DNA of 64,000 nucleotides from positions 223,153 through 287,152 of the forward strand of contig CAVRCJ010000001.1 of assembly GCA_963719515.1 (NCBI GenBank), read 5' to 3'. This DNA is from an uncultured cyanobacterium (GTDB lineage Bacteria > Cyanobacteriota > Cyanobacteriia > CAKZMO01). Below the pieces are notes generated by a model. The model worked only from the letters and a program-made list of their open reading frames with translations, searched no databases and had not been told where the DNA came from. Positions 30,555 to 61,894 of the stretch are shown here, in pieces (position 1 is the stretch's first letter; every line of letters begins with the position of its first letter). The position numbers and the translations under genes are program-made.

Positions 30555-30585
30555 TTTAGAGGATGTCAAATCTGCGCACTGTAGA

Positions 30586-30669
30586 GGTAACAGTCACGCT
30601 CACCGGGCGCAGACAACCTTTGCGGCACGACCGAAGTTTTGGGTCGTTCCGGTGACGCGGTTGTTAGAC
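30586..30669. repeat. attC-like imperfect palindrome (GGTAAC-agTCACGCTCACCG ... CGGTGACGCGG-ttGTTAGAC)
   Basis: Outer cores are reverse complements (..TAAC / GTTAGAC) with inner inverted repeats. It sits exactly at the high-GC to AT-rich transition. Confidence 0.45.
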
Positions 30670-31790
30670 TCTTGGTGGGTTGCAGGTAATTAGCTGGTAA
30701 TCAACGATTCATGGTTTTCCCAGTTTTACCTCTAGTTTCTGTGCGAGCTCTGCTGCATCTGTAGCTTTTAGCTTTCCAATATCGAAATATTGCTTACTGC
30801 CGAACATCCTCCTGAACTTGCTTGACAAGATTAGTGGGATGCATATCATCCAATATAAATACCCTTACTGGATACCAAGATTCTCCAATTTCTTGGCGAC
30901 ATTTTATCGCAATCTGAATCATATCTTTTTCTAATCGGCTGACATTCGCTCCACAACAGACTCGCTTCATCTTCGTCTTCAGATTCCGAATCTACGACTG
31001 CTCGATTCGCGATACTTGTTCGACACATTTGTTGCGATATGCCCCAAAGTACAACTACGACGATGATTATAGGCTCCAGTTTGTGCTGGACAAGTGTATA
31101 TCTTTGTGTTCAGTACATATCAAACTTCCCTGTGCAGTTTACGACATCCAAGCGATACCTCCAAGACGGCAGCAAGCTATTTTCATCAAATATTGCGCCC
31201 AAATCTGAACTGCATCAATCAGATTTTTCGGCAGATAAGGCAACTGAATTGCTTGAAGAAATTGTTCAAAACTAACAAATGTAAAAGCAATACCCCTTCT
31301 TTAGCCTTGATTTCAACGTCCCGTAAAACCGGGTAGTTTGCTCGATGTTGCTGCTCAAAGTTGCCTAAAGCTATAAGTATTCTCTCTCCTTGCCTTGCTT
31401 CCGATATCTGTCGATGGGCTGGAAGACGTTCTTCCCCGAATCGCTGCCAAGCTTTGTCTCGATCAAAGTGAGAACGATCTTGAAAATTTCACCATCTGGC
31501 ACGCTGTCTTTCCCACGGCGCTGTTGAATGAACTTTACACCTACCGTTCCTGAAAAGCTTTCACCGATAGTAATCCTCGTGCTCCGAGAGAAATTTCGGA
31601 TTCTCTTGGTTCAGCATCTTAGAATTAAAAGACAGTGATTTGTTGTTTGATTTTCTCTCTGCCAGTAAGTTCGGAACAGACGTATGCTTCGACCCCGTCG
31701 TTTGTCGTTGTTAAGTTGACTAGAATGTCGATTCTACTTTCAAGCTCCTAGCTGATTTCTTAAATTGTACGCAGTCGTTGATTTAAGAGG

Positions 31791-31872
31791 GCTAACGTTC
31801 GGGTCACGGTTATCAGGATCTTTACGTCTTATCAAGCGGGTATGGTAATCTACTGCACCCGAATTGTTATGC
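31791..31872. repeat. attC-like imperfect palindrome (GCTAACgttcGGGT ... ACCCgaattGTTATGC)
   Basis: Same architecture as the sites at 30586, 47675, 50549, 53042 and 54290. Confidence 0.45.
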
Positions 31873-32628: not shown

Positions 32629-32790
32629 CTTCCTCCTCGTGCCTCCTCCATAAATTTTCTATTCATTTTTGTAGGATCTCTTGATGAGAAACTCTGAAAT
32701 ATCAGCGTCCCAATGACCTGAGTTAACATAACGCTATATGCAAAAATAATAACCACTTAGCTATTATCTCAACTGGAAGAAAGCGGCATA

Positions 32791-33020
32791 ACTATATATT
32801 CAACGTCAGATCTGACGGATAACACCCTGCTTCCCAGATCTTATCAGGCATATCTGACGGATAACACCCTACTTTCCGTGATTATTCACCGCATCTGACG
32901 TCTAACTCCGGGAATCTAGGGTGTTATCCGTCGCTCTTGTCTGATAACCATGGGTTCTAGGGTATTATCCGTCACTTTTGTCAGATAACACCCCATTTAG
33001 CGGTGTTATCCCGTGATTAG
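32791..33020. repeat. attI-like array: six copies of (C)TGACGGATAACACCC(T) in direct and inverted orientation, directly upstream of the integrase-remnant start
   Basis: Homologous arrays occur at 54431-54660 (6 copies) and, degenerate, at 35450-35520. The conserved left border is caactatatattcaacgtcagatctgacgg. Confidence 0.6.
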
Positions 33021-33022
33021 CC

Positions 33023-33103
33023 ATGTCGTCATCCCAGCCTCCTCGCCTGCTCGACCAAGTAAAGCAGGTGCTTCGTACAAAGCAATTGCAGCCTCACAAC
33101 TGA
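33023..33103 (+). pseudogene. integron-integrase-like tyrosine recombinase, N-terminal 27-codon remnant
   Basis: MSSSQPPRLLDQVKQVLRTKQLQPHN* compares with the IntI/XerC N-terminal ..LLDQVRE.IR.KHYS.RTE. A stop follows, and no recombinase catalytic domain is downstream. Confidence 0.5.
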
Positions 33104-33159
33104 GGAGTCCTACATCCACTACATCCACGAATTCATCCTATTGCACGGCGATCGCCCCA

Positions 33160-33365
33160 CAGCAGAACTCCAGAACAAGCCAGCAGAACTGCCGAGTCGG
33201 TCTACAGAACTCCCAAGCAGCTCAACAGAACTCCCGAGCAGCATTTTAGAACTCCTGAGCAGGTCAGCAGAACTAGCGAGCAGCACTACTCAACTCATTA
33301 GCAGCTCAACAGAACTCCAAAGCAACAATTTAGAACTGCTAAGCAGGTCAACAGCACTCCTGAGC
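33160..33365. repeat. ~10 tandem 21-bp repeats (cagaactcc.gagcag.....)
   Basis: Visible periodicity. Homologous array at 54836-55045 is in a different reading frame, so it is not protein-coding. Confidence 0.6.
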
Positions 33366-33535: not shown

Positions 33536-33674
33536 AGCCCCTAAGCCCCCACGACAGACACTGGCTGTCGGGAACGGCCTGGAGTAATGATATTACCCGG
33601 CCATCCCAAAACCAAAAACGTCGCGGATGTCCGGTCGGCGGGGGGCTCCAATTAACTCAAAAACGGAGTCCCTC

Positions 33675-35443: not shown

Positions 35444-35850
35444 TGTGGGCTAACTATATAACCAACACCTATTCAATAACACTCTACTTTCCCAAATCTT
35501 ATCAAGCAATTCTGCTAAGTAGTACTATTATATCTTTTGCGATCGCCCCCCAAAAGCGATCGCCCCACACCACACCACAAAAAACCGCCCCACCCTCTTG
35601 CCAACCCGCGCACAAATGTCCTACCTTATGGAGCTATGAGCCACAACCCACGGTTCTAGTCTCCCAAAGATTCGGTCTGGGCGGAGCCGCATGTTGTTGA
35701 TCCCAACATGCAGCCCCTAAGCCCCCACGATAGGAGTTGGCTATCGGGAACGGCCTGGAGTAATGATATTACCCGGCCATCCCAAAACCAAAAACGTCGC
35801 GGATGTCCGGTCGGCGGGGGACTCCAATTAACTCAAAAACGGAGTCCCTC

Positions 35851-38058: not shown

Positions 38059-38840
38059 GTGCCAGACGATGACTCCCGAGGCTGCTTGCGCTTGAGCGCC
38101 AACGTCTCCTACGCCCAAGCAGCAGATGACGTGGAATACCTCATAGGGGTTCGAGTTGCTGCTAAGACTCAGCAGCGCATCGTGCAACGCCAGGCGTTTT
38201 GCCCTCCTGCAAGGCAGCAGCTTAAAGAAGTTAGCGTCGACGGCGGGAAAGTGCGGCTGAGAATAGCGCTAGGAGAGCCTTGCAGATGGAAAGACTACAA
38301 AGCAGTTGACACTGATGAGGGTGTTGTCGTGGCCAGCTACCGGGACAACGCTACCCTGACGCAGTGGGTCAGCAACCGCTCTCAGCGCCTTTGACGGCTC
38401 TAGGCAACGGGCATGACGGGGTATGAAATATCGTCAGCCAGATGAGCACCTCAGACCAAAGGCGTGAGATTCTCGACTGGTATCACCTGGTGGAAAACCT
38501 GCACAAGGTGGGCGGCTCTGTCAGACGGCTCAACCGAGCCGAGGCCCTGCTATGGCAAGGAAAGGTAGATGAGGCTATAGCACTATTCGTTGGCCTTAAG
38601 CGCCGGGAGGCAAAGAACTTCTACAACTACTTGTGCAAGCATCGCCACCGCATCATCAACTATCACTACTACCAGCAAGAGCAGATTTGCTCTATTGGTT
38701 CTGGGGCTGTTGAGTCAGCTATCAAGCAGGTAGGCCGCAGAGTCAAGATCTCAGGAGCGCAATGGAACGAAGAGAACGTCCCTCAGGCGCTGGCGCATAG
38801 GCGCGCTTATCTCAACGGCCTGATTGGTTTACAAAGGTGA
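38059..38840 (+). mobile_element. ISKra4-like transposase fragments (two ORFs, internal and C-terminal pieces)
   Basis: ...VSVDGGKVRLRIALGEPCRWKDYKAV..., ...ILDWYHLVENLHKV...; 5' part is missing. Confidence 0.45.
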
Positions 38841-44000: not shown

Positions 44001-44791
44001 GTGGTAGTGTGAATGGAACGGTACGGCTGTGGGACCGGCAGGGCAGCCCCATCGGCCAGCCTTTCAGCCATTCGGATTATGTTCATTCAGTTGCCATCAG
44101 CAACGACGGTCAGACTATCGTCAGCGGTAGCACTGACAGAACGGTACGGCTATGGGACCGGCAGGGCAATCCCATTAGCCAGCCTTTTGAAGGCCATTCA
44201 TCTTCGGTTTTGTCAGTCGCCATCAGCAACGACGGTCAGACTATCGTCAGCGGTAGCATTGATAATACGGTGCGGCTATGGGATCGGCAGGGTAGCCCCA
44301 TCGGCCAGCCTTTCAGTCATTCAGATTCGGTTTATTCAGTTGCCATCAGCAACGACGGTCGGACCATTGTCAGCGGTAGCTTTGATAGAACGGTACGGCT
44401 GTGGGACCGGCAGGGTAACCCCATCGGCCAGCCTTTTGAAGGCCATTTATCTCGGATTAGGTCAGTTGCCATCAGCACCGACGGCCAGACCATCGTCAGC
44501 GGTAGCATTGATAATACGGTGCGGCTGTGGGACCGGCAGGGTAACCCCATAGGCCAGCCGCTCAAGGGTCATTCATCTTCGGTTATGTCAGTCGCCATCA
44601 GCACCGACGGCCAGACCATTGTCAGCGGTAGCTTTGACAAGACGGTGCGGCTGTGGCCTATATGGCTATCAAGTGGCTGGATTCCCTACACCTGCGATCG
44701 CCTCAAAGGATACCTGTTAGTCGTTGGCCAAACCGACGATGACGCCGCCCGCGAAGCCCTCCGAGCCTGCCGCCGCTACGCCTGGAAATAG
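41081..44791 (+). CDS. NACHT-family STAND NTPase with 14 C-terminal WD40 repeats
   Basis: Walker A ILGPSGCGKSSLARAG, and Walker B LVVLVDQFEEIY. A long helical region is followed by 14 WD40 units of the GHSS.V.SVAIS.DGQTIVSGS.D.TVRLWDRQGNPIGQPF type. Confidence 0.85.
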   Translation: MTDPSDQSIRINESAVGSAIVSGSGNTVYVIHQAQARQQDPVQSDGGAGRASTQIGPNPYKGLSAFQEQDADRYFGREAQVARLWQRFRELYEQANREDAPPRFLPILGPSGCGKSSLARAGLIPELARQAGQIAKETLRVAVLVPGESPLKALAGVLARLTQDDQTPEVIKKRSYEKDLRESAAEGRYDFLQDVAETLSDIHVTPLVVLVDQFEEIYSLCKDASDRHTFIETLLQAASSATGYVTVVITLRSDFLAETQRHPQLNQIIGSDRSVIVPAMSEAELRRAIAQPAIQAGHPLDDAVVDLLVKDTEGREGALPLLQFALTRIWEGLGDGKTAAETYREMDGVGGALAGKAQEIYDRLPEAEQAIARRVFVGLVQLGEGTRDTRRRAEVETLMTSRDKPEAVKQVIGQFSSPGARLVTLSGEEGQGVAEVTHEALFDHWQLLNDWLDANRDDIRFQRRLEAAAGYWEKQGRPDGLLWRPPDLDLLRGFAQKAQLDMTPLATDFYEAADAAERQEKRRRRLNLYGLRAGLVVMTVLTSFAGFKVNQAGRRQMQYYAERAENLGSSDPLRSLVNGLAAIQLSRSTLLKAPFVWQSSRFTSAILDIPNRTKRFGYGMGHSSRVRSVAISTDGQTIVSGSDDDTVRLWDRQGNPIGQPFSHSSRVNSVAISTDGQTIVSGSVDGTVRLWDRQGNPIGQPFEGHSSWVNSVAISTDGQTIVSGSFDNTVRLWDRQGNPIGQPFEGHSSEVNSVAISADGQTIVSGSRDRTVRLWDRQGNPIGQPFEGHSSSVNSVAISTDGQTIVSGSSDNTVRLWDRQGNPIGQPFRHLDSVYSVAISNDGQTIVSGGLDRTVRLWDRQGNPIGQPFEGHSSLVNSVAISNDGQTIVSGSSDDTVRLWNRQGNPIDRPFEGHLDSVLSVAISNDGQTVVSGSSDRTVRLWDRQGSPIGQLLEGHSDSVSSVAISNDGQTVVSGSVNGTVRLWDRQGSPIGQPFSHSDYVHSVAISNDGQTIVSGSTDRTVRLWDRQGNPISQPFEGHSSSVLSVAISNDGQTIVSGSIDNTVRLWDRQGSPIGQPFSHSDSVYSVAISNDGRTIVSGSFDRTVRLWDRQGNPIGQPFEGHLSRIRSVAISTDGQTIVSGSIDNTVRLWDRQGNPIGQPLKGHSSSVMSVAISTDGQTIVSGSFDKTVRLWPIWLSSGWIPYTCDRLKGYLLVVGQTDDDAAREALRACRRYAWK
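42927..44650. repeat. 14 tandem 120-bp repeats (WD40-coding) with very high nucleotide identity
   Basis: Each repeat recurs almost base for base, and differences cluster at 4-5 codon positions per unit. Confidence 0.8.
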
Positions 44792-47315: not shown

Positions 47316-47422
47316 GCGAGGGGGGATGTGACCGACCATGGGTTGGCTACAGCTCGGGTCGCGTGAGCGTTACCGGGCCGCATGAAGTGATTGTGGTTTG
47401 CAGTGGCGGTCAGGTGGATTCT

Positions 47423-47680
47423 CTAGGCACGATGGATTTGGGATTTCCGCTGGGTTTGGATTCGGAACGCTCTGAATCTCGATGATGAATCGGTATCAAC
47501 TCGTAGAATGTATTCCGCTAGGGGTGGCTTGAGGTGAGATGCCTCGGTAGCGAGCTCCTGTTCTAGCTGTGGGGGCAAATCCAAAGTGATGTTCACGGCC
47601 ATGCTCTCCTGCGACAGCTCTATTCTATTACTGCGCAAATTTCTGCGGGCTGACCTATGCAGAAGGAGGCTACCGCACAA
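47423..47680 (-). CDS. small hypothetical protein (possible ribbon-helix-helix-like, weak)
   Basis: A likely internal start gives MAVNITLDLPPQLEQELATEASHL. It overlaps the attC-like site at 47675. Confidence 0.25.
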   Translation of the reverse strand: MCGSLLLHRSARRNLRSNRIELSQESMAVNITLDLPPQLEQELATEASHLKPPLAEYILRVDTDSSSRFRAFRIQTQRKSQIHRA

Positions 47681-47760
47681 CGGTGAAGTGCAGCGGCGGC
47701 AGGCAAGCTTGAACGCTCACCGATAACCTCTGTACCGTCCGCACCAACGAAGTGTTAGGT
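47675..47760. repeat. attC-like imperfect palindrome (GCACAACggtgaagtgcaGCGGCGG ... CCGTCCGCaccaacgaagtGTTAGGT)
   Basis: Clear sequence similarity to site at 50549 (CTAACgttgaagctgaGCGGCGG ... CCGTCCGCTC..GTTAGGC). Confidence 0.5.
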
Positions 47761-47765
47761 GGCTG

Positions 47766-48119
47766 CTATTGATCTCGGTAACTTTTCGCATAATACAGAC
47801 AACCAATAAGACTACTTGCTCCTTCTGCAGCTGCTAAACACTCATAGCCTGTTTCATCCTGCGTAAAGTGTAGTTCAACTTTATTGACAAAGGTTCGCAA
47901 ACCAAGCAGAGCTTCTTCAATCTTTTCTTTAGTAATACTCAATAATGGTTCTGGATGATCTTGAAAACAAGTTTTTAGATCTGTATGAGCAACCCGACGG
48001 TTCCTATGCTTTCTTGCAAAGTCGCAGCTATTCTTTATGATCTCTAGCGTTTCTACCAACTCTGCTTTCAGTTGAACCAATGATATAGCAATCCTGTTTG
48101 ATTTATGGAAAGGAGCCAT
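47766..48119 (-). CDS. hypothetical protein (117 aa), 5' end abuts/overlaps the IS630 element
   Basis: The ORF-track frame 47766-48293 runs into the IS630 transposase gene in another frame. An internal ATG at 48119 gives MAPFHKSNRIAISLVQLKAE... Confidence 0.3.
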   Translation of the reverse strand: MAPFHKSNRIAISLVQLKAELVETLEIIKNSCDFARKHRNRRVAHTDLKTCFQDHPEPLLSITKEKIEEALLGLRTFVNKVELHFTQDETGYECLAAAEGASSLIGCLYYAKSYRDQ

Positions 48120-49160
48120 ACCTGTGCAGTTTGGGGAAATCGAAAGTATCCAACCTGAAGAACTGCTCAAACAGGGCTTTGAGTGCCGGAAACGATGGAC
48201 ACAACCCAGACATCCGCCTAAGCCAGGTCTTGCCTTGAAGCCAAGCATCTTCAATCGGGTTCTGAGTCGGGTCATTGGGGGCAAAACGAACACAGTGAAT
48301 CTTCCATTCTTCTTGCGTAAGCCCCTCGTTCACCTGGGCTAGATACTCCTTAAGCTCGCCAGAGCGATGATAGCTGGCCCCATCCCAAAGAATGAGTAAC
48401 CGCTGGTGGGGAAACTGAGCTTGTAAAGACTTCAGGTAAGCAATGGTACAAGCGGTGTTGCCCTTCTCATGCGCTTCGATAAATAACCGCTTGCTCACTA
48501 GGTCCACTGCCCCGTAGTAGGTTTGGCGCTCTCGCTCATTGACAACCGGCACTACCACCCGCTCATCAGTTCGCCCCCAAACATATCCTTGTAGGTCACC
48601 GCTCAGAAGGTGACACTCATCAAAGAACAGCACCCTCAGCTGCCCTTTGGCAATCGCCTCGCGGTAGAGCGCCAGCAGAGCGCAGATTTCGGCTTTTTTG
48701 CTGCCACCGCCTTAGCGTCCGCCTTGGGGTTGACCTTGCCGCTCTTCTTCCAGCTGATGCCAGCAGCCTCAAACAGGTCGTAGTAGCTTTGCTTCGACTC
48801 GTAGGCCACATCGTACACCTCAGCCAAGTGGTGCTCCAATTCGCTCAACTCCCAAATCGCCTTTTGCTGTAACCAGCTCAGCACCGCTGCCTTCTGCTGG
48901 GTCTCTAGATAGCTTTTTCGGCCCTTGTGCTGGGGCTTAAAGCCAGCTACGCCCCAGCTTTCGTAAGCTTGTTTCCAGTTGCTCACGGCTCCCATCGATA
49001 CATCGAGTATCCCGACGATCGCCTCATACCTATAGCCTTGGTAGAACAGCTTCACCGCTAGTGCCTTTTTCACTTGCCTGCCATCTCGTTGTTGACGGAT
49101 GAAGGCTTTGAGCTCCTCCACTGCAGCAGTTTTATTAGGTTTAGCGGGTGTCGTTAGCAT
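48103..49160 (-). mobile_element. IS630-family transposase (two ORFs joined by a putative -1 frameshift at A_AAA_AAG)
   Basis: N-terminal HTH ORF 48636-49160, and C-terminal DDE ORF 48103-48633 (FFDECHLL, LILWDGASYH, NDPTQNPIEDAW). The slippery heptamer aaaaaag at ~48690 puts ..AAKK/AEICALLALYREAIAKGQLRVLFFDECH in frame. Confidence 0.7.
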
Positions 49161-49310
49161 TGCTCAGGGCCTCTCAGTATCAGCGCTTTAGTCTCCTCCG
49201 TAATTATACTGGCCCTACTTCACGAATCACCTCGGATTGCTATAGGTCAACACTATCTAGTATTCTCGCTAAGGTTAAATTTTCTTTGTTGCCAGCTTTT
49301 GAAGAATCAG

Positions 49311-49541
49311 TTAAACGGCTAATTGACAAATTGACAAGATGATGTCATTCAAGAATACAGACTGACAAATACCAAAAAAAGTGGGGGCAGACTCATTTAG
49401 CAAATCAACTATTTCTTCATCTTCATATAATTGAGAAAACAAGAGCCATTTTAGATGTAGTTCTCCAAGCTCTTCCGAAATAGCTTGAAGCAATTCGTCT
49501 ATTTTCTGTGTCATTTTCTCAGCCTTTCGTCTTAAGATCAT
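49311..49541 (-). CDS. small hypothetical protein coupled (ATGA overlap) to the T5orf172-domain gene
   Basis: 76 aa, AT-rich, no motif. Confidence 0.35.
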   Translation of the reverse strand: MILRRKAEKMTQKIDELLQAISEELGELHLKWLLFSQLYEDEEIVDLLNESAPTFFGICQSVFLNDIILSICQLAV

Positions 49542-50395
49542 AGACCCATTTGTCGAATGTAATTTTGATCAGGATAAACATCTGGCTGTCCCATCCTTAC
49601 AACTCTATAAAATGCTTCATGAACTATTGCTGGAGGTTTATCATCAAAGCAATCACCAAAAGGAATTGGAAATCCATCAGGGTGTATTTCAATATCTTCC
49701 ATGAAGCCAATCATTTTGCCATACTGCCAACAATCAATGATACTAATTATTGAGAGTTCAGGCTCAAAGAGAGATAGTTGTTCGGAGCTAGATGTAAGCT
49801 TTGGTGAACCAATGATAACAACTCTATCGCCAGGATATGTGATTGTGACTTCACTGAGAGAGCCTGGAATGCAAGAATCATTTGCTAACTTAATTAAGCT
49901 TGAAGGATCATCTTCAGATCTAGTCGTAAGTAGTATATGATCTCGAGCCTTGCAACCCCAAAAATTAATAGGTTTAGGTTTATCAGCCAACCAATTTTCA
50001 TATCTAAACAGGAGAATAATTCCTTTTGAATAGCAAGTCCATCGGAATGTAGTGTTTACATCCAACCTATGAATTCCTGCATGAATTGAGGTTGCGCTTT
50101 TGTCAAATTCTTCATAGACAACTTCTTCGACAGCCGATATTGCTTCTTGCAGAGGTATCACAAAAAATTCTCGATTAGCCTTATATCGATACTTCTTTAA
50201 TTTTTGATGAATTAATTTTTCAGCTAAAACACAATCAGGGACATCTCTTTCGTAACAAATGCTAAATTGTTCAGGCAATCCTGTTGTAAACAACTCTTTT
50301 ACCCTTTCCCGCACATTCCGCTCTGTTCTCCCGATCTTAAGCATGTTCTCAGGTAGTACAGAATTTTGCAGAATGTAAACAGAACCCGCAGACAT
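49538..50395 (-). CDS. T5orf172 / GIY-YIG-like nuclease domain protein with unknown ~180 aa C-terminal domain
   Basis: N-terminal GSVYILQNSVLPENMLKIGRTERNVRERVKEL matches the T5orf172 pattern (YIL.N...KIG.T.R....R..EL). Confidence 0.55.
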   Translation of the reverse strand: MSAGSVYILQNSVLPENMLKIGRTERNVRERVKELFTTGLPEQFSICYERDVPDCVLAEKLIHQKLKKYRYKANREFFVIPLQEAISAVEEVVYEEFDKSATSIHAGIHRLDVNTTFRWTCYSKGIILLFRYENWLADKPKPINFWGCKARDHILLTTRSEDDPSSLIKLANDSCIPGSLSEVTITYPGDRVVIIGSPKLTSSSEQLSLFEPELSIISIIDCWQYGKMIGFMEDIEIHPDGFPIPFGDCFDDKPPAIVHEAFYRVVRMGQPDVYPDQNYIRQMGL

Positions 50396-50548
50396 TGAAT
50401 GCAGCCTCTTTTATGAACTGTGCTGGAGAACTCAGAGATACATCAATATATTTCCCAATTGAACGGATTCAGGAACAAGTCTTCAAATTATTCAACGTTT
50501 AAAGCTTACAGACAAGTTTCAAGGATGCCCTTGCCGAGGATTGAAGCC

Positions 50549-50633
50549 ACCTAACGTTGAAGCTGAGCGGCGGCCAATATTTTTGCACCGAGCCTGGATT
50601 GTAGATTCCGTCCGCTCCTGCATGAGGTTAGGC
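50549..50633. repeat. attC-like imperfect palindrome (ACCTAACgttgaagctGAGCGGCGG ... CCGTCCGCTCctgcatgagGTTAGGC)
   Basis: Outer cores are reverse complements fitting RYYYAAC / GTTRRRY. It lies downstream of the dynamin-like GTPase gene. Confidence 0.5.
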
Positions 50634-50790
50634 TGCCGAATTGGATATGTTGTCGGTGTCCGCATCAGGGACTATGTTAGGCTAAAAACACTTGCTTCAA
50701 GAACTCATAAGCATGTTGCGTTCTCAAAAATCTATCGATGCGGTAGTAAGAGCTACTGTAGGGAACGCAACCTACAAGATTGGCAGGCGC

Positions 50791-52680
50791 TTATGATCTA
50801 AGATCATTTGCACGACAACGAAGCCCTTCTACTGCATCAATAATTGTCTTTTGCACCTCACTGCTACCAACACGGATTGCTAGAGCAACAAGGTTTTGGT
50901 ATTTGTCAAGCCAGCCTTCCCATTCTTTGACATATCCCTCATAAGCATCCTCGTAGTCATGTAGAAGTTTACCTGCATGGCTTTGTTTGGCAAAATTAAT
51001 ATGTTGGTTGGATATATCTACAGCTGCTTTGCTACACCTATCGAGAGCCTCTAGCTTTTGCTGCGCTGCATCTTTGAGTATGGTATTACTTTGTGTAAGA
51101 TTAGTTGCATTACCAGAATCAAAGTCTAATTCGACTTCTCCGAGAGGCATTTGAATCGTAGCCTTCTCAAACATCGGTAATCCGATACTGCGATGCAGCC
51201 ACTCAAAGGGGAGTACTTTCTCAAGAAAAACACGGTGCTTTTGGGGCCTGAGATAAGAAATTAAGTTGTCGTCAAACTCGTAGTCAGTCCTATTACTTGG
51301 AATTTCAGGAATTGAAACCTCATCACGAATACCGAACCGCTCTTCAATCTCTTCAACCCTCACTTTCACTCGAGCAGCAACTGCGTCTGTCCTCTTTTCG
51401 AACACGATTCTCACACCTTCTTCGAGATTGGCCAAGTAGTTCTCTACTTTCTTATTAACAACTTGAGTCCCATACTCCTGAATATGCTGGAATAGCCGAT
51501 TCATGTAGCTCGCAGGTAGTTCCGATGGATTTGGGAAGGGTAAAGCAAGGTCACGAGGTTGAATTTTGGGGTACTGAAGGGCTTTGACAACCCCTTCATA
51601 TAGATGCAATTCCTTTATTTCTTTTGCATGTGCAGGGAGTTCCACTTGTGACAACTGAATGAGTCGTTCACACAACTTGAGAAGTACTTCTCGATCCTTT
51701 CTACATAGGACACCCAATGCGGAAAGAGAGTCAGCGACGCGCTCAAATGAGCCAGCCGCAGCAAAAACTCTGCTGTTGCCTGAGATGACTACAAAATCAC
51801 GAAGAATCTGAGTGAACTCGTACTTATCCTGCCACTTATTTAGAACTGAGCGGGCGGAGACTGCATATATACGAGCATCATTTGCATTTGCCCCACGATT
51901 TTGAAGCTTTTGAACAAATTTACGTTTCAGCTTCTCAAAATACTCAAGTGATGGATCTTCATCAGCCTTATTCACTATAAATATCGTAGACTTTAGGCGA
52001 TTTTGAAAGCAATCCGCCAATCCATCGAGACCTCCACTGCCTCTGATTTCAACCGAGTCAGAGTTGTTAAGGAGCACCAATGCGAGATCAGCTTTCTGTG
52101 TCGAGTATCTTTCAGCGAGTAACTGCTGGCGTTTGTTGCCCAAAGTGAATCCTGGAACATCTGCAAGATCGATACGCCGTAGGATATCTGTGGGAACACC
52201 CACAGTCACACCTTTGAGACGCTTAATATTATCACGGTTATACTCCTCATCAAGAAGGCTACGGAGATGCCTTTTTAGTTCAGAAGGATCAAGCCCTTCC
52301 AAGTGTATGGCGTGCTGTGGAATTTCTGAGGTTACTTTGAGCTCGTGCTCTCTAGAGAAACTAACTACTGCGGGAAAAGTTGTGCATGCCTCAACAGGTC
52401 CTTCGGGAAGCAAATTGTAGCCAAGTATTGCATTGATGAAGCTAGACTTACCGCCACCTCTGCCTCCAACAATTGCGACTAAAATCCGGCCATCAGCAAC
52501 ACGCTGAGCAGCTTCCTTTAAATCAGAAACGATTATGTCAGCTGCTGCTAATGTTGCCTTTGGCAAGCCCTCTGGAAGAATACTGCGGAAGAGTTCCTCG
52601 ATTTCGTGGGTTGCTGATTCAATTGTGCCAATAGCGCGCTCTTCTCTTTCTCTTTCTGTAAACTTTTGTGGTTGAGACAT
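50791..52680 (-). CDS. dynamin-like large GTPase
   Basis: G1 VGGRGGGKSSFINAILG, G3 LADVPGF, G4 IVNKADE, and a ~400 aa helical C-terminal region; AT-rich. Confidence 0.7.
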   Translation of the reverse strand: MSQPQKFTEREREERAIGTIESATHEIEELFRSILPEGLPKATLAAADIIVSDLKEAAQRVADGRILVAIVGGRGGGKSSFINAILGYNLLPEGPVEACTTFPAVVSFSREHELKVTSEIPQHAIHLEGLDPSELKRHLRSLLDEEYNRDNIKRLKGVTVGVPTDILRRIDLADVPGFTLGNKRQQLLAERYSTQKADLALVLLNNSDSVEIRGSGGLDGLADCFQNRLKSTIFIVNKADEDPSLEYFEKLKRKFVQKLQNRGANANDARIYAVSARSVLNKWQDKYEFTQILRDFVVISGNSRVFAAAGSFERVADSLSALGVLCRKDREVLLKLCERLIQLSQVELPAHAKEIKELHLYEGVVKALQYPKIQPRDLALPFPNPSELPASYMNRLFQHIQEYGTQVVNKKVENYLANLEEGVRIVFEKRTDAVAARVKVRVEEIEERFGIRDEVSIPEIPSNRTDYEFDDNLISYLRPQKHRVFLEKVLPFEWLHRSIGLPMFEKATIQMPLGEVELDFDSGNATNLTQSNTILKDAAQQKLEALDRCSKAAVDISNQHINFAKQSHAGKLLHDYEDAYEGYVKEWEGWLDKYQNLVALAIRVGSSEVQKTIIDAVEGLRCRANDLRS

Positions 52681-53041
52681 AATGAATGGATTTACTACAT
52701 TCTGTAGCTAGACAGCTAATTTCTAATATGATCTAAATTTTAGGCTCACAAAGTAACACACTGTTACCCTAAGATCGGTCTCTATTAGGTTCTCGTTGGC
52801 GAAAAAACGCTAGATCTAGATGCATCCAGTGATTTAACATAAGCAGCCTGGGGTAAATAAACCAAGGTAGAAATGGCTGGAACCCCTGTTCTGACGTCAT
52901 CCCTACCTCGAATTAATTATCCGTACCTACTTACTGGAATCTTAACATTATCGGATAGTGGTATAAACGTTCTATAAAGAACCCACGCGCAGCTTTGTTT
53001 ACTCAGTCTCTGCAAATACAAAGTGGAAGGACTTTCATTCT

Positions 53042-53128
53042 GCATAACGTTCCGGTTGAGCGGCACAGAGCGACCTAAACGATAGACGAAAAAACTCTCA
53101 ACTGTCCGCTCCAACCGGGTTGTTATGC
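53042..53128. repeat. attC-like imperfect palindrome (GCATAACgttccggttGAGCGG ... CCGCTCcaaccgggttGTTATGC) overlapping the stop codon of the upstream gene
   Basis: The 7-bp outer cores are exact reverse complements. The stop codon of ORF 53123-54256 lies inside the GTTATGC core. Confidence 0.5.
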
Positions 53129-54256
53129 ATGGTTTCTACGTCTAATTTCGTCTATCAAACTCATTTTCGCTAGTTCTTCATAACTGTCTATTGAATGCAA
53201 AAATGCAATGTTCTTGTTATTAGATTTATCTATCAAATCCATAAGAGCATTAGCATTGTTCAACTGCCTTTCAGATAATGATTCAAAATCACCGACTATA
53301 TTTTCTCTTGTATTAGTATTTATATAGCTGAAAAGCTTGCCCATTAAACCAACAAAAACATCTGAAGCCTGAACAAACAAATTGCTTTGCGAATCAATAA
53401 AAGAATAATTTTTTATCTCTTGGTTATTATCGATGATCGTATATTTTGAAATAATTTCCGAAATACTCACCTCATTATCAAAAATGTGCCCTGAATTCTT
53501 AAATAAATATATAGGCCTTAGATAAAATTGCGAAAAATTCTCTATTAAGATATGGTCTTCTTCATCCATTATGAATGGAAGCGAGTTATTTTTCTTTGCT
53601 TCTTTAAGTATCTGACTAAGGGATTCTAATCCAAAATGAAATTCTTGCGTGTCAATGTATTCGTCAAATATTGAAGTTAGTTCTTTAATAAATTCTAAAA
53701 CTGATTCCTTTTTAAGGTTAGGATAACCAGAATTGTAAAACAGTTCAGTCACCAAGCCGATTTCAAGTCTCGCAAGTTTGTACAGATCATTCTTTAGATG
53801 ATTTGAGAAACCTATCCCTAACTGCATTGCTGTTTCTGAGTTTGCAATTGCAGAATCAACTATGTCAGCAATAGACCAGTAAAGAATATTTAGGCTCGAA
53901 TAGTGAATGTATAAATCATGCTCTAAGAGGCATCTCAAAAAGATATTCAGCTTTTCAGATTTTAAGCAATCGAGAAATTCACCCTTAGCAATGTGCTTGA
54001 GCTTTACTTCTACAATATTCTTTTGTAGGTTAAGCTTATCAAACAAAGGTTTAATGTCAGGTTGGTTTCCTTCATAAACCAAACCGCCTAAAACAAAATT
54101 TAAATTAAAAGAAGAATTGAAGTTTTCCCCCCTCACATAGAACTTTCTAATATTATTCGTTTCGTCATAATAAAAAATGAAAGAACCGTCAAAGTTTGCT
54201 GTCGGTGCAAGCATTTTAGCCATACTTCTAACATCGCTGACATCAAAATCGATCAT
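53123..54256 (-). CDS. hypothetical protein, DUF3800-like N-terminus (Abi-like, family uncertain)
   Basis: N-terminal FIFYYDETNNIRKFY resembles the DUF3800 IFYiDESG start. Very AT-rich and Asn/Ile/Lys-rich. Confidence 0.4.
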   Translation of the reverse strand: MIDFDVSDVRSMAKMLAPTANFDGSFIFYYDETNNIRKFYVRGENFNSSFNLNFVLGGLVYEGNQPDIKPLFDKLNLQKNIVEVKLKHIAKGEFLDCLKSEKLNIFLRCLLEHDLYIHYSSLNILYWSIADIVDSAIANSETAMQLGIGFSNHLKNDLYKLARLEIGLVTELFYNSGYPNLKKESVLEFIKELTSIFDEYIDTQEFHFGLESLSQILKEAKKNNSLPFIMDEEDHILIENFSQFYLRPIYLFKNSGHIFDNEVSISEIISKYTIIDNNQEIKNYSFIDSQSNLFVQASDVFVGLMGKLFSYINTNTRENIVGDFESLSERQLNNANALMDLIDKSNNKNIAFLHSIDSYEELAKMSLIDEIRRRNHA

Positions 54257-54289
54257 TTTCTATCTCTTTCCAATACCTTTCCATACGAC

Positions 54290-54345
54290 GCATAACGTCG
54301 AAGCTGAACCGGACCGCCGACTTGGCCGTCGCCGGACGGTTAAGA
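54290..54345. repeat. short attC-like palindrome (GCATAACgtcgaagctgaaCCGGaCCGCC ... GGCGGtCCGGacgGTTAAGA)
   Basis: The left half is alignable with the left half of the 50549 site. It lies between the first cassette ORF and the attI-like array. Confidence 0.35.
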
Positions 54346-54430
54346 GGCGGTGTCTGTTCCAGCGAAGTGTTGTGTTGGCGCTCTCGCTAACAGGGTTCCC
54401 GAGCGGCAACATATAGCCTGCGTCGACACA

Positions 54431-54660
54431 ACTATATATTCAACGTCAGATCTGACGGATAACACCCCACTTCCCAGATTTTATCAGGCATATCTGCTGG
54501 ATAACACCCTACTTCCCGTGATTATCCGCCGCATTTGACATCTAACCTCGGAAATTCAGGGTGTTATCCGTTACTTTTGCTAGATAACCCTGGTATCTAG
54601 AGTGTTATCCATCGCTTTTGCTGGATAACACCACCATATCGGGCGTTATCCAGGAGTTAA
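54431..54660. repeat. attI-like array: six GGATAACACCC-type repeats (direct and inverted), homologous to 32791-33020
   Basis: Shared left border caactatatattcaacgtcagatctgacggataacaccc. Confidence 0.6.
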
Positions 54661-54662
54661 TT

Positions 54663-54746
54663 ATGCCACCATCACAATCGCCCCGTCTGCTTGACCAGGT
54701 AAGACAAGTCCTTCGTACAAAGCGTTACAGCCTCAAAAAAGCCTGA
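54663..54746 (+). pseudogene. integron-integrase-like tyrosine recombinase N-terminal remnant (27 codons)
   Basis: MPPSQSPRLLDQVRQVLRTKRYSLKKA* is the best-preserved copy of the IntI-type N-terminal ..LRLKHYSLRTE. Confidence 0.5.
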
Positions 54747-54835
54747 GTCTTCGTAATTGCTGGCCAAAGGCCAATTCCTATTCATCTGCACAAGTTTGCT
54801 TCATTACGTGCAGCGATCGCCCCACAGCAGAACTC

Positions 54836-55045
54836 TCAAGCAATTCAGCAGAACTGCCGAGTCGGTTTACAGAACTGCTGAGCAGCATTTTAGAACTGCC
54901 GAGCAAGATCCCAGAACTGCTGAGCAAATTAGCAGCACTAGCCAGCAGCCCTGTTCAACTCAGCAGCAGCTCAACAGAACTCCAAAGCAGCAATTTAGAA
55001 CTGTTGAGCAAGTTAGCAGCACTCCCGAGCCGCGATCGCCCCCCT
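54836..55045. repeat. ~10 tandem 21-bp repeats (cagaactgc.gagca......), homologous to 33160-33365
   Basis: Periodicity visible. The reading frame differs from copy 1. Confidence 0.6.
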
Positions 55046-55316
55046 GGGCAAAAACCACCCCTACCCTCTTGCCAACCTGCGCACAAATGTCCTACCTTAT
55101 GGAGCTAAGAGCCGTCCACGGTTCTAGTCTCCCAAAGATTCGGTCTGGGCGGAGCCGCATGTTGTGACACCAACATGCAGCCCCTAAGCCCCCACGACAG
55201 GCATGGGCTGTCGGGACGCCTGGAGTACATGTTACCCGGTCATCCCACCTCCCAAAAACGTCGCGGATGTCCGGTCGGCGGGGGACTCCAACACAATTCA
55301 CAAAATGGAGTCCCTC

Positions 55317-55691
55317 ATGACAACTCAATATCTTTCGCTGCCCTGCGGGTCGGCACAGTTTGCAGCGGCCCAAAACCCCGCTGCGGACCAGTCAGCGCTG
55401 CGGCTAGACTCGCCCCTAGAAGCTGAACCTGCTATCCCCACGCTAGTCGAGCCTTCCCCAGCTCCGGGGTGCGTTGGCCCTTCAGGGCCAGTCGAAGACT
55501 CACACCTAAGGCACATCATCGTTGGCTCCCCCGAAGGCGTTCGCCACGCCATCAACCGGCTGCATGTGCTGCAGTACGTTGAGTGGCGTCTGTGGACACC
55601 CCTAATCGCCATCGGTGAGCAGGGCCTCCATATCACCCCCGCCCAAGGGCAAGTGCTCAGCTACCTCGTGCAGCAGCGCCCCATCCGATAG
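55317..55691 (+). CDS. conserved hypothetical protein, module copy 3 (124 aa, most divergent copy)
   Basis: ...SHLRHIIVGSPEGVRHAINRLHVLQYVEWRLWTPLIAIGEQGLHITPAQGQVLSYLVQQRPIR; same leader and hairpin (55157-55178). Confidence 0.6.
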   Translation: MTTQYLSLPCGSAQFAAAQNPAADQSALRLDSPLEAEPAIPTLVEPSPAPGCVGPSGPVEDSHLRHIIVGSPEGVRHAINRLHVLQYVEWRLWTPLIAIGEQGLHITPAQGQVLSYLVQQRPIR

Positions 55692-55818: not shown

Positions 55819-58800
55819 TTACTCCACCCCCTCAATCCGGTTCTCCACCTCCTCATACAGCTCCTGCAGCCGCGCCAGGTTCTCATCACTGGTCTCCCAG
55901 TAGCCCCGGCCATTGGCCTCCAGCAGCGTCGTCACCATGCGGCGGAACGAGTTGGGGTTGAGGTCCATCAGCCGCTTCTGCATCGCCTCATCCTTAATAA
56001 AGGTGTCGTTGGCGTCCTCATAGACGAAGTTGTCCACCGCGTCCGCCGTCGCCGACCAGCCCATGGTGTTCACCATCCGCTTCGACAGCTCCCGCACGCC
56101 TTCGTAGCCGTGGTTGAGCATGCCCTCATACCACTTGGGGTTGAGCAGCTTGGTGCGGGCGTCTAGGCGCACCGTCTCCGACAGGGTGCGCACCTGGGCG
56201 TTGGCGGTGGTGGTGTCGGCAATGTAGGCGGCGGGCTTTTTGCCGTCTGCCCGCAGGCTAGCCACCACCTTGGTGGGGTCGGAGTCAAAGTAGTGGGAGA
56301 CGTCGGTGAGGGAGATTTCCGAGGAGTCCAGGTTTTGGAAGGTGGCGTCCACGGTTTTGAGGGCCGTCTCCAGCACGCCGCGAGACTCGTCCATCACGCC
56401 GGGGTTGTCGGAGTTGAAGGCGAAGGATTTGCGCTTTAGGTACATTTCCTGCAGCTCCTGCTCCTCTTCCCAGGTGCTGTTTTCCACCGCCAGGCTGATG
56501 TTAGCGGAGTAAGAGCCCGAGGCATTGGAGAAAACGCGGGTCGCGGCCTGACGCAGGTTGACCCCCATATCTTCCGCCTGCTTCAGTGCATGCTTGCGGA
56601 CAAAGTTCATCTCTAGGGGCTCCACGGCTTCTGCCGCCATCTTCACGCCCTTGTCCAGCAGCGCCATTTGGTTAATGAACAGGTCTCGGAACACCCCGGA
56701 GCAGTTGACCACCACGTCCACGCGGGGGCGACCCAGCTCCTCTAGGGGAATCAGCTCTAGCTTGTTCACCCGGCCCAGGGAGTCGGGCACGGGGCGCACG
56801 CCCACCAGCATCATCACCTGGGCCAAAGATTCGCCGTAGGTCTTGATGTTGTCGGTGCCCCAAAGGACGAAGGCAATGGTCTCGGGGTATTTGCCGTCGT
56901 TCTCTTGCTTTTGTCGCTCCAGCAGCCGCTCTACTACGACTTTGGCCGACTGTACCGCCGCCGTGGTGGGAATGGACTGCGGGTCTAGGGCGTGGATATT
57001 TTTGCCCGTAGGCAGCACCGCCGGGTTGCGGATGGGGTCGCCGCCGGGGCCGGGGAGCACGTAGCGCCCCTCTAAACCTTGCAGCAGAGCGCCCAGCTCG
57101 TTGTCGGCCACCACCTGCTTCAGGCAGAACTCCAGGAACTCCAGCAGCGGCTTCAGGTCGTCGGCGCTGACGTTGGGGTAGCCCGACTGGTGCAGAGACT
57201 CCATCCAAGGCGCTTTACGGCCCATATTAAGGAAGTTGAGCTTCGTCACCTTGGAGACCCGGCCCTCGGCGTCGGTCTGCTCTTTCACCATGGCGGCGAT
57301 CGCCTTGCGCACCGCTTCGCTGACGTCGTTGAGCAGCTGCACGTCGTCCAGCGCGCCGCGATCGCTGTTGAGGTAGATCTCTTCGATATCTCGGCCTAGA
57401 CTCTCGGCGATGATGCGGGGCATGCTCTTCATGCCTTCCTCCTGGCGGTCCAGCCCGGCGATGTTTACCAGGGTGGCGATCGCCTCTGTGGCGGTGGGGG
57501 GCTCGCCGATCACATGTAGGCCGCAGGGCAGCAGCCGCGACTCGATTTCCATCAGCTTGATGTACACCTTGCCCACCAGGGTGTCACGGTCTTCGCTAGA
57601 GAGCGTCTTGACGTCCTCCGGCAGCGTGATGTCCTTATCCAGGTTCACCAACCGGCTCTTTTCGACGATGGCGGCGGCGATCGCCTCTCCCCGTCCGGTG
57701 TCCTTGAGGGTTTGGTAGGAGCCGATGAGGTCGCTCAGCTCTTTGAGCCCCTTGTACAGGCCCGCGTTCTCCGCCGGGGGGGTCAGGTAGCTGATGGTCT
57801 CCGCATAGGAGCGCCGCTTGGCGATGGTGGCCTCGGAAGGGTTGTTGGCCGCGTAGTAGTAGAGGTTAGGGGTGCTGCCGATCAGGCTGTCGGGGTAGCA
57901 GTCCCCAGACATGCCCATCTGCTTACCGGGCATGAACTCCAGGGAGCCGTGGGTGCCAAAGTGCAGTACCGCGTCCGCCTTCCAGATTTTTTCTAGATAG
58001 GTGTAGTAGGCGGCGAAGCCGTGGTGAGGGCTGGCGGAGCGGGAGAACAGCAGCCGCATGGGGTCACCCTCGTAGCCGAAGGTGGGCTGCACGCCGATGA
58101 ACAGGTTGCCGAAATGCTTGCCGTAGACAAGCAGGTTTTGGCCATCGCTATTCAGGTTGCCGGGGGCCGGTCCCCAGTTCTCCTCTAGCTTTTTGGAGTA
58201 GGGCGTCAGCCGCTCATACTCGGGCACCGACATCCGGTAGGCCACGTTGAGCTCGGGGCTGTTGTACTGAGCCTGGGCGTCGTGAATGACCTCCAGCATC
58301 AGCGCTTCGGCAGACTCGGGCAGTTCGGGAACGTCGTAGCCGTTGTTCTTCAGGGCTTCCATCACCCGGTAGATGGAGCCGAATACGTCTAGGTAGGCGG
58401 CGGTGCCTACGTTGCCTTTGTCCGGCGGGAAGCTAAAGACCGTAATGGCTACCTTCTTTTGCAGCTTGGACAACCGCCGCAGGTTGGCCCACTTTAGGGC
58501 CCGCTGCGAAATCGCCTCCACGCGGTCCTGGAGGGCGATCGCCTTGCCGGTGCTGCCGTCGCGGCCCGACAGGATAATCGGCTCAATAGCGCCGTCTAGC
58601 TCGGGGATGGCGATCTGCAGCGCCACCTGAATAGGGTGCAGGCCGAGTTCGCTGCCCTCCCACTCTTCGGTAGTTTGAAACACCAGGGGCAGGGCCACCA
58701 TGTAGGGGCAGTCCAGCCGCTTCAGGGTGTCGATGGCTTTGGGGTGGTCCTGGCGGGCGGGGCCGCCCACGAGGGCGAAGCCGGTCAGGGAGACTACCGT

Positions 58801-59799
58801 GTCGACGATGGCCCGGTCTTTGAGGAGGGGATCGAAGAAGAAGGCCTCTACCGGCTTAGAGAAATCTAGGCCACCCGAGAACACGGGAATTACCTTGGCT
58901 CCCATGCACTCCAGCTCCTGCACCATGGCCACGTAGTGGGCATCGTCGCCGGTGACCAGGTGGGTGCGCTGCAGCACCAGGCCCACGCAGGGCGCTAGCG
59001 GGTCCTTGAGGTCATCGCCAATGTCGGGGCGAGACTGATGCCAGTTGAGGTACTCCTTGACGTCCTCAAACATGGTGGGGGCCAGGGGGTGCCAGATGCC
59101 GATGTCGGGGTAGGTGACGGGGTCTTGGTAGCCGATGGCGGAGCCGTCGGGGGCCTGGACATTGCCGTAGCGGTCCACCAGCATCAGCAAAAAGTTTTCT
59201 AGGTTCTCCGAGGAGCCCCCCAGCCAGTACTGGAAGCTGAGCATGAAGTTGCGGGCGTCCTGGGCCTTCTCCACAGGCAGGTACTTGAGCACCTTGGGCA
59301 GGGTGCGCAGCAGTTTGAGCATCGCGTCCTGGAAGCTGCTGCCCGAATTCTCCTTGCGCTTCTTCATAAAGGAGGCGATCGCGCTCTTAGACTGGCCCAG
59401 CTGCGCCATGGAGAAGCTGCCCAGCTTGTTGAGGCGCATCACCTGGGGCATGGAGGGAAAGACGATGGCGGCGTCGAGGCGATCGCGGTGGGGCTGCACG
59501 GCTTCGACCACCTTTTCGGCCAGATCTTCAATGAAAATCAGCGAGGCGATGAAGATATTGGCCTTGGCGACATCGTTCTGAAAGGCCTCGTAGTTCTCGG
59601 GGCTGCGCAGCTCTTCGAGGAGGTAGCCGCTGATCTCGATGGCGACGTTGGGATTGTTGAGGTTAATGGAGCGGACGGCTGCCGACAGGGCACTTTGGTA
59701 CTGCGGTTCCAGCACGACATAGACCACATTGATCAGAGCACGTCCCTTGAGATCATCTGGTGCGATATGTCTGACAGTGGGCTTGACGTGGGTAAACAT
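55819..59799 (-). CDS. chlH: magnesium chelatase H subunit (CobN/ChlH family)
   Basis: 1326 aa. The N-terminal [41 protein letters not shown] is typical of ChlH. Long CobN/Mg-chelatase-like body. Confidence 0.85.
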
Positions 59800-61700: not shown

Positions 61701-61846
61701 TACTTATGGACTCCTACTTGCAGCATTTTTCATGCTGGTGGAGTACGGGTGGTAGTGGCGCACCGCGCCACTACCACCCAAATCCGTACCTCACGCGACT
61801 GGAAATCGCTTTATTCGTATGAGGTCGTATAAAGCTGTCTGAATAA

Positions 61847-61894
61847 ACACAGCGCCGCAGAAAATGTTTAGTCTTCTGCGGCGCTGTGTTTTAG
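61847..61894. terminator. bidirectional rho-independent terminator (acacagcgccgcagaa-loop-ttctgcggcgctgtgt followed by T-run)
   Basis: Perfect 16-bp stem with TTTT on the plus strand and TTTATT on the minus strand. It lies between convergent genes 60248-61588 and 61922-62254. Confidence 0.55.

Follow-up and report, generated by a model that had tools for sequence, protein, structure and literature searches.

We analyzed a 64,000-nucleotide stretch of DNA from an uncultured cyanobacterium (contig CAVRCJ010000001.1, positions 223,153 to 287,152; below, the window, whose own numbering is used throughout) and found that its 47.4-54.75 kb region is very probably a sedentary chromosomal integron, belonging to a filamentous cyanobacterium, whose own integrase has been lost. 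The element has a cassette array and an attI site; what it lacks, compared with a complete integron, is intI, the gene for a tyrosine recombinase with an extra, IntI-specific domain. In IntegronFinder's terms it is a cluster of attC sites lacking integrase (CALIN) that retains attI and an intI stub, and it is unable at present to rearrange on its own. An earlier, sequence-only reading of this DNA had proposed a CALIN rather than an active integron, which is correct for the window: tblastn with full-length IntI matched nothing in the 64 kb besides two N-terminal fragments (54663-54746 and 33023-33170). The same reading had described an AT-rich block with all genes in one direction, in agreement with a GC content of 33-48% across 47.4-54.7 kb, compared with ~60% in the flanks, and with the location of each sizeable open reading frame (ORF) there on the - strand. 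The integron finding is real and had been correctly interpreted. The window is cyanobacterial in look, with GCGATCGC (HIP1) motifs present.

The attI site and the integrase remnant

The integration platform at the right end of the array comprises the following features:

54430..54662, + strand: attI (copy 2), with crossover AAC↓TATATATTC, six GGATAACACCC-type boxes and degenerate copies
54457-67 (+), 54499-509 (+), 54559-69 (-), 54600-10 (-), 54623-33 (+), 54641-51 (-): GGATAACACCC boxes of attI copy 2, with a period of 41-42 bp
54663..54746, + strand: intI remnant of 27 codons plus TGA, MPPSQSPRLLDQVRQVLRTKRYSLKKA, equivalent to the SAM-like region at the N-terminus of an integron integrase

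The six-repeat array lies where the sequence-only reading had placed it, with its boxes spanning 54457-54651. Two direct boxes are followed by two inverted ones and by one direct/inverted pair (each with no more than one mismatch), and matches to GGATAACACCC with 0-1 mismatch are confined, within the window, to this array and a second one at 32817-33011. This array belongs to a conserved attI of ~235 bp. On the - strand the crossover reads G(54432)↓TT(54431-30), i.e., ...ATATAG↓TT. The site can be identified as attI because the homology between the two platform copies in the window starts exactly at AAC↓TAT, the DNA to the left being unrelated, and because the same core and boxes precede an intact integrase gene in a relative (L024). 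Thus, attI lies beside intI, has a G↓TT crossover, and has its first cassette joined there; recombination at the site is itself a prediction.

The 27-codon remnant had been called integrase-like, and it is: running from the ATG at 54663 to the TGA at 54746, it aligns with the start of an intact integron integrase (residues 1-25; tblastn E 4.5e-4). To find related platforms, we searched a set with one genome from each species for pairs of boxes separated by 29-35 nt. This produced ~30 cyanobacterial loci, including members of the Elainellaceae, Leptolyngbyaceae, Nodosilinea, Coleofasciculaceae, Microcoleus, and Phormidium. An IntI N-terminus begins ~10-15 nt past the last box in 14 of the ~30, and 16 attI regions, that of L024 among them, could be aligned over ~235 bp, with a common crossover motif and six boxes. 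As the sequence-only reading had suggested checking, the same attI repeats adjoin an integron integrase in related genomes: in L024, attI is directly upstream of an intact 322-aa IntI (489.8 bits on TIGR02249, cut-off 265). Boxes also occur upstream of a 327-aa IntI in a gammaproteobacterial locus from Nevskia (L061). At most other related loci (L030, L060, L008, L002, L038, L046, L034, L040, and L020), intI has decayed independently, by frameshifts or internal deletions. Matches to the box pattern outside the cyanobacteria (Thiomargarita, Rubritalea, Ekhidna, and others) have, except for Nevskia, no IntI nearby and were treated as unrelated repeats. An origin of the repeat array as ends of Tn7-like or CRISPR-associated transposons (CAST) was dropped when the boxes were found upstream of integron integrases.

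The last direct/inverted box pair (54623-54651, and 32983-33011 in copy 1) has the form GGATAACACC N9 GGYGTTATCC and ends ~12 nt before the intI ATG. It is scored by an attC model as a minimal R''/R' hairpin (E 0.057), and it may represent either a site for IntI or an operator of the intI promoter, PintI. Between copies 1 and 2 the boxes are identical at 60/66 positions, compared with 127/167 for the inter-box DNA (Fisher p = 0.01). We found no description of a six-box attI in the literature, in a search that was not exhaustive.

Four attC sites and their relatives

The four palindromes of the array, 85-87 bp in length, are genuine attC sites on the - strand. To characterize them, we trained a covariance model (R1) on these four window sites only:

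54290..54375, - strand: attC a, R1 70.8 bits, E 1.4e-16; closes the ORF-less cassette 1
53042..53128, - strand: attC b, R1 81.1 bits on the - strand compared with 23.2 on the + strand; DNA fold z = -5.0
50549..50633, - strand: attC c, R1 81.8 bits
47675..47760, - strand: attC d, R1 85.4 bits

All four had been located properly by the sequence-only reading, but with a size range of 55-90 bp that is too broad, and with three of them downstream of ORFs, where only two are (by 158 nt and 6 nt). A third does overlap a stop codon, as stated: the R'' box of attC b, GCATAAC, includes the TAA (53123-53125) of a DUF3800 gene. The site nearest attI closes a 136-nt cassette without an ORF. The palindromes end in RYYYAAC...GTTRRRY and conserve an inner GAGCGG/CCGCTC stem, giving the - strand layout RYYYAAC, 5-6 nt spacer, GGAGCGG-A-CGG stem, loop, CCGCCGCTC, spacer, GTTRRRY. 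They are spaced by 1.2, 2.4, and 2.8 kb, and so constitute an array in the accepted sense, which requires two or more attC sites within 4 kb of each other, each folding into an imperfect hairpin with RYYYAAC/GTTRRRY boxes, an unpaired spacer, and extrahelical bases on the R''-L'' arm.

With R1, the four sites obtain 70.8-85.4 bits on the - strand and no more than 23 bits on the + strand. In related loci, which had been retrieved by the attI box pattern alone, it picked up 18 more sites, spread over 11 cyanobacterial loci besides the window (31-56 bits; E values of 2e-5 to 4e-12). Together with one weaker match, these make 19 sites, every one of which (19/19) is located to the cassette side of the attI core and on the opposite strand from intI. 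The suggested attC model check was thus borne out, by our own model in place of IntegronFinder's, with four sites of 71-85 bits on the - strand only and family members elsewhere. The models replaced home-made palindrome/attC scanners, because these were too permissive or too strict: the permissive version returned many foldable AAC...GTT pairs in GC-rich DNA, and the strict ones only site b, attI boxes, and unrelated hairpins, about as often as in shuffled sequence. Rfam yielded no relevant match and no attC family at either gathering or permissive thresholds.

Folded as single sequences, sites b (z = -5) and a (z = -2.6) are more stable than shuffles, whereas c and d are not (+0.65 and -0.9). 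Because this was only partly convincing, we relied on comparative evidence. In an alignment of 22 sites, 88.5% of cells are paired and changes on both sides occur in 12 of 19 pairs; none of 500 shuffles reached this covariation, and slid registers drop to 23-43% paired. Two unpaired bases, 8 nt apart, are conserved on the 5' (R''-L'') arm. The folding check thus recovered hairpins with R boxes, an unpaired spacer, and an L stem, as well as the two extra bases. Extrahelical bases that direct the choice of the bottom strand reside on the R''-L'' arm (PMC2727003), so the + strand should be the one that is recombined, which agrees with gene orientation and the position of attI.

The sites also carry traces of past insertion. 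Integration yields a chimeric attC, and a circular cassette rebuilds R' from its last G and first six bases. Consistent with this, the first 6 nt of the cassettes complement their own R'': at 68/76 positions the outer 4 nt of R'' agree with the tail of R' in the preceding site (or with the attI junction), compared with 49/76 for the R' of the same site. By site, 10 agree better with the preceding site, one agrees worse, and eight are ties. Of the six sites in the window, four are informative in this respect, and each of these favors the preceding site (cassettes 1 and 4 of the array described here, array 2, and both of array 1).

Cassettes and their cargo

The five units of the array, in order from attI, are:

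54431 down to 54296, - strand: cassette 1, 136 nt, ORF-less; its start, TTGTGT, exactly complements R'' of attC a, ACACAA
54295 down to 53048, - strand: cassette 2; gene 53123..54256, DUF3800 protein of 377 aa (Pfam DUF3800)
53047 down to 50555, - strand: cassette 3; gene 50791..52680, bacterial dynamin-like GTPase of 629 aa (Dynamin_N, 7.5e-16)
50554 down to 47681, - strand: cassette 4; gene 1 at 49538..50395, T5orf172/GIY-YIG-like protein of 285 aa (T5orf172, 9.8e-18)
47766..49541, - strand: cassette 4, gene 2, HEPN_AbiU2 pseudogene, whose start overlaps the T5orf172 stop by 4 nt
48086..49242, - strand: insertion sequence (IS) of the IS630 family, 1157 bp, with termini TAGCAATCC...GGATTGCTA and TA duplications at 48084-85 and 49243-44
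47420..47680, - strand: cassette 5, terminal and partial; start TTGTGC at 47680, 62-aa ORF at 47423-47611

The three cargo proteins named by the sequence-only reading had been identified correctly. The intact genes, encoding the DUF3800, dynamin-like, and T5orf172 proteins, are AT-rich foreign cargo and candidates for an anti-phage function. The DUF3800 protein matches the PADLOC candidate PDC-S51 over nearly its whole profile (452.9 bits, 1.8e-136, positions 2-371 of 376), predicting an anti-phage role, and has homologs of 62-92% identity in many cyanobacteria and Bacteroidota. Several of these homologs are themselves associated with attC sites. In Thermocoleostomius sinensis, the homolog lies inside an array of at least eight attC sites beside a split intI, and its attC overlaps its stop codon, as in the window, which speaks for the mobility of this cassette. 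On a contig of Leptolyngbya sp. CCNP1308 (L074), two attCs of the window family flank the gene, and the contig also bears a relaxase and a group II intron reverse transcriptase, which suggests that the cassettes also travel on plasmid-like DNA. On a Joint Genome Institute metagenome contig (L076, 8001-9221), an attC-like site (E 0.002) immediately follows the stop codon of a 79%-identical homolog; the two sit alone between a mutY-like gene and obg, with no array or integrase nearby. This is possibly an off-site cassette insertion, and recalls those described previously (bioRxiv 10.1101/2022.09.11.507474).

The dynamin-like GTPase, the single gene of cassette 3, matches the Protein Data Bank entries 5owv, 2j68, and 6j72. 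Look-ups with its exact protein sequence, and with that of a flanking monooxygenase, gave no match; for the DUF3800 protein, the only record was a 1.36-kb contig from the same organism. Its match to LeoA is weak and partial (29.8 bits, residues 168-283), and cassette 3 does not have the combination of a LeoA-type GTPase with a LeoBC partner that defines Eleos/LeoA-LeoBC. The T5orf172 protein matches PADLOC PDC-S57 (6.7e-27). The 62-aa ORF of cassette 5 has no family match. The only candidate for a site closing this cassette is a degenerate R''/L''-like half, seen by eye at ~47370-47395. In the ORF-less cassette 1, the 56 nt preceding attC a (54376-54431) include TGCCGCTCGGGAACCCTGTTAGCG, which resembles the L'-R' half of an attC; cassette 1 may be the remains of two units.

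The second gene of cassette 4 is no longer intact. A small ORF coupled to the T5orf172 gene had been noticed before; it is present, and the 4-nt overlap predicts translational coupling, but it is actually the N-terminal piece of a HEPN_AbiU2 gene split by the IS630 element and frameshifted by an 8-bp tandem duplication (49322-49337). Both halves match PF18734 (27.3 and 31.7 bits, cut-off 26.8). In silico removal of the IS and the duplication restores a 202-aa ORF that is colinear with an intact 205-aa AbiU2 (L080) and identical to it at 128 residues; this intact form is found in two other contexts, behind a T5orf172 of 74% identity. The insertion of an IS630 element inside the array, also proposed earlier, is confirmed by the TA target duplication, together with a DDE_3 transposase, an N-terminal helix-turn-helix, and terminal inverted repeats. 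A megablast search of plasmids with this element gave no match.

Further platforms in the window

The truncated platform is not unique. Two others, with their own cassettes, lie within 25 kb. To identify the attC sites of array 1 we used a broader covariance model, R2, whose training set did not include them (sites e and f):

32790..33170, + strand: second platform (copy 1), six-box attI 32790-33022 and frameshifted intI remnant 33023-33170
31790..31872, - strand: attC e of array 1, R2 18 bits, E 0.022; its cassette start, TTATGC, complements R''
30585..30669, - strand: attC f of array 1, R1 E 0.019; R2 44.7 bits, E 3e-10
35454..35540, + strand: third platform, a degenerate attI stub of ~75 nt, ...TATATAG↓TTAGCC on the - strand, with a deletion reaching a HIP1 site

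The copy-1 intI remnant, MSSSQPPRLLDQVKQVLRTK..TEESYIHYIHEFILLHGDRP, is longer than that of copy 2 and frameshifted. Its 45-aa reconstruction matches the N-terminus of TIGR02249 and NF011946 (positions 1-34 and 15-51, respectively); in a word-indexed protein search with the reconstruction, the sole match was another 46-aa remnant. Copies 1 and 2 share one deletion junction, from ~codon 50 to a 21-bp tandem repeat, and their cassettes differ up to the crossover. Thus, the deletion is older than the duplication of the platform or was spread by gene conversion. In L030, a metagenome-assembled genome of the Elainellaceae, attI is followed by an intI in which codons 54-281 are deleted, then by the 21-bp tandem repeat and a homolog of orf131, so the repeat and orf131 are the native downstream neighbors of intI.

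The first cassette of array 1 encodes a 121-aa membrane-like protein (32263-32628) without a family match. The third-platform unit, from 35453 down to ~34100, encodes an N-terminal fragment of a methyltransferase, an antitoxin-like protein, and a PIN toxin; a GGCTAAA at ~34110 is a possible remnant of R''. The three orf131 paralogs (33627-34022, 35803-36198, and 55203-55691) encode proteins of 131-162 aa, always follow a platform, and have no Pfam or NCBIfam match; the homolog in the same position in L030 is 63% identical. The 21-bp repeat, CAGAACTCCCGAGCAGCTCAA, lies at 33163-33365, 54849-54949, and L030 1086-1339, in 5-10 copies with 42- and 84-bp super-periods. It is bounded by HIP1 sites, is probably non-coding, and keeps its position between the intI remnant and orf131 in the relative.

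Proposed history and alternative explanations

Established integron biology suggests how the locus could have been built. The IntI tyrosine recombinase would have bound double-stranded attI at the G↓TT crossover, and probably also at the GTTATCC-type boxes, and would have recombined it with the folded bottom strand (here the + strand) of circular cassettes. New cassettes would have entered beside attI with their genes facing away from intI, and repeated insertion would have produced the five units: ORF-less, DUF3800, dynamin-like, T5orf172 with HEPN-AbiU2, and truncated terminal. A deletion would then have taken intI from ~codon 50 through its stop codon, leaving a truncated platform that is now present in at least two copies plus a third, further-deleted one. 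Subsequently, the IS630 element and the 8-bp duplication would have inactivated AbiU2.

Several observations weigh against the integron reading or parts of it. The attC models detected no site closing the terminal unit of array 2, and none at the end of array 3. Because the models are our own, their matches show membership in a family, not agreement with IntegronFinder's curated model. In place of the commonly conserved G, the bulged bases on the bottom strand would be C and T; a G>C change in an extrahelical base had only a 1.3-fold effect in the work of Bouvier et al. (PMC2727003). No sigma-70 consensus match for the cassette promoter, Pc, was found in 54200-54800, where a cyanobacterial promoter may escape a consensus scan; thus, expression of the cassettes is unsupported. 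Around homologs of T5orf172(-AbiU2) elsewhere, the attC model found no sites of the window family, leaving the mobility of this module as a cassette unsupported. Finally, the putative role in defense has PADLOC candidate families and domain homology as its sole basis.

If the palindromes were generic repeats (such as repetitive extragenic palindromes, miniature inverted-repeat transposable elements, or terminators) in an ordinary acquired defense island, the integron layout would be a coincidence. The failure of any Rfam family to match them would fit this idea, as would the many foldable AAC...GTT pairs returned from GC-rich DNA by a generic palindrome scan and the two sites of four that fold no better than shuffles. 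We nevertheless regard it as highly improbable, and it is already contradicted by the strand specificity of the model scores, the invariable side and strand of the 19 sites beside attI in other genomes, the compensatory changes, conserved bulges, and chimeric outer boxes, and the adjacency of the same attI to an intact IntI in L024.

Two other alternatives accept the integron and concern its present state. An intact IntI encoded elsewhere in the same genome might act in trans, in which case the arrays would be alive and the platforms would be satellite integration sites. We consider this unlikely, albeit worth keeping in view. Copies 1 and 2 have the same intI deletion junction, yet their homology ends at the crossover and their cassettes are entirely different, suggesting attI x attC recombination after the deletion; however, a break at this point would also result from gene conversion between two old platforms. 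The stronger identity of the boxes than of the DNA between them hints at continued constraint, and half of all CALINs occur in genomes that encode IntI (Cury et al., PMC4889954). Against this, no intact intI is found within the 64 kb, most related loci also have a decayed intI, and the AbiU2 lesions and degenerate terminal site suggest a long time without turnover. The GGATAAC boxes might instead be operators at which a host- or integron-encoded transcription factor controls PintI or Pc, with the 41-42 bp phasing reflecting repressor looping. This seems slightly less probable still. The box 5/6 inverted pair does end where a promoter or operator would sit, the boxes are still conserved in genomes with a decayed intI, and direct repeats for IntI are absent from most non-class-1 attI sites (PMC3146285). 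The box core GTTATCC/GGATAAC, however, resembles a core site, as shown by comparison with the cassette R boxes GTTATGC/GCATAAC and the attI1 repeats GTTATGG/GTTACGC (PMC3146285); moreover, the box 5/6 pair is scored as a miniature R''/R' hairpin, and the proteobacterial locus from Nevskia also has boxes upstream of intI. A speculative idea that spans both alternatives is that the ~235-bp six-box attI (GGATAACACC boxes in 41-42 bp phase, from the crossover to the intI start) is a clade-specific nucleoprotein platform selected after the loss of the integrase, either as several integrase-less satellites within one genome that would still gain or release cassettes by means of IntI in trans or with the boxes taken over by a host regulator; we hold it as doubtful as the activity in trans.

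Comparison with known integrons

Our preferred reading, a sedentary integron without its integrase, places the locus among elements that are well documented. Cyanobacteria are already known to harbor integrons and CALINs (Cury et al. 2016, PMC4889954); an attC model for these bacteria (Ghaly et al. 2021, PMC8352920) and defense genes carried as integron cassettes (bioRxiv 10.1101/2024.07.02.601719; PMC12614218) have been published as well. Thus, the kind of integron, its host group, and its defense-type cargo are already known, and the points that merit further attention are the six-box attI and the possible servicing in trans. As in other sedentary chromosomal integrons and CALINs (PMC4889954, PMC8352920), intI diverges from a co-oriented array, the attI crossover is G↓TT, and the attC hairpins have R''/L''/L'/R' boxes, an unpaired spacer, and extrahelical bases, with chimeric sites. 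The locus also resembles CALINs in that no integrase accompanies its attCs, at least two of which are less than 4 kb apart, and in its AT-rich foreign cargo, its toxin-antitoxin-like units, and its cassette without an ORF. Unlike usual CALINs, of which only 15/279 lie near a recognizable intI pseudogene (Cury et al., PMC4889954), it keeps an integrase stub of 27-49 codons, and its truncated platform occurs two to three times within 25 kb.

In the class 1 site attI1, a simple site is accompanied by two direct repeats that bind IntI1, DR1 (GTTACGC) and DR2 (GTTATGG) (PMC3146285). In the window attI, too, core-site-like 7-mers (GTTATCC) separate the crossover from intI, lying on the side of the simple site that faces intI. 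Where attI1 has two repeats, however, the window attI has six to eight candidate boxes in both orientations, spread over ~200 bp with a 41-42 bp period and reaching the intI start codon; binding of IntI to them is putative. Such an elaborate, conserved site is noteworthy, given that most non-class-1 attI sites are reported to be without these repeats (PMC3146285).

The cargo resembles published integron defense cassettes in consisting of compact anti-phage-type modules of one or two genes, each followed by an attC. It differs in its cyanobacterial host and in that PDC-S51/DUF3800, the lone dynamin-like GTPase, and T5orf172 with AbiU2 are only candidates, one module being a pseudogene. The domain matches to lactococcal AbiU/HEPN_AbiU2 and to the T5orf172 candidates (PADLOC PDC-S57, PD-Lambda-1) are above Pfam cut-offs. 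The T5orf172-AbiU2 pair is not a described system; it recurs with an intact AbiU2 in the two other contexts, unlike the disrupted copy here, and more distant T5orf172 homologs stand alone.

The locus provides a cleanly dissected cyanobacterial case of integrons storing anti-phage-type genes, an idea documented so far mainly in Vibrio and mobile integrons, with exact cassette boundaries for three compact candidate defense modules. Its platform copies, with one integrase deletion and different cassettes, are relevant to deciding between CALINs as fossils and CALINs serviced in trans. These findings do not overturn current understanding.

Other features of the window

Between the integron copies lies a 1236-aa ORF (41081-44791), the C-terminal half of which consists of ~14 near-identical 126-bp units (Tandem Repeats Finder, 85% matches). 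Judging by eye, we take it to be a P-loop NTPase with WD40-type repeats, of the STAND kind often tied to defense or signaling. Two adjacent ORFs at 38059-38840 look by eye like transposase fragments, which suggests more insertion-sequence decay between the arrays. To the right of the array, a 1326-aa ORF (55819-59799) is, again by eye, presumably a magnesium chelatase H subunit. Palindrome scans also returned a near-perfect 53-nt hairpin at 61842-61894, AAACACAGCGCCGCAGAAGAC...GTCTTCTGCGGCGCTGTGTTT, which is probably a bidirectional terminator.

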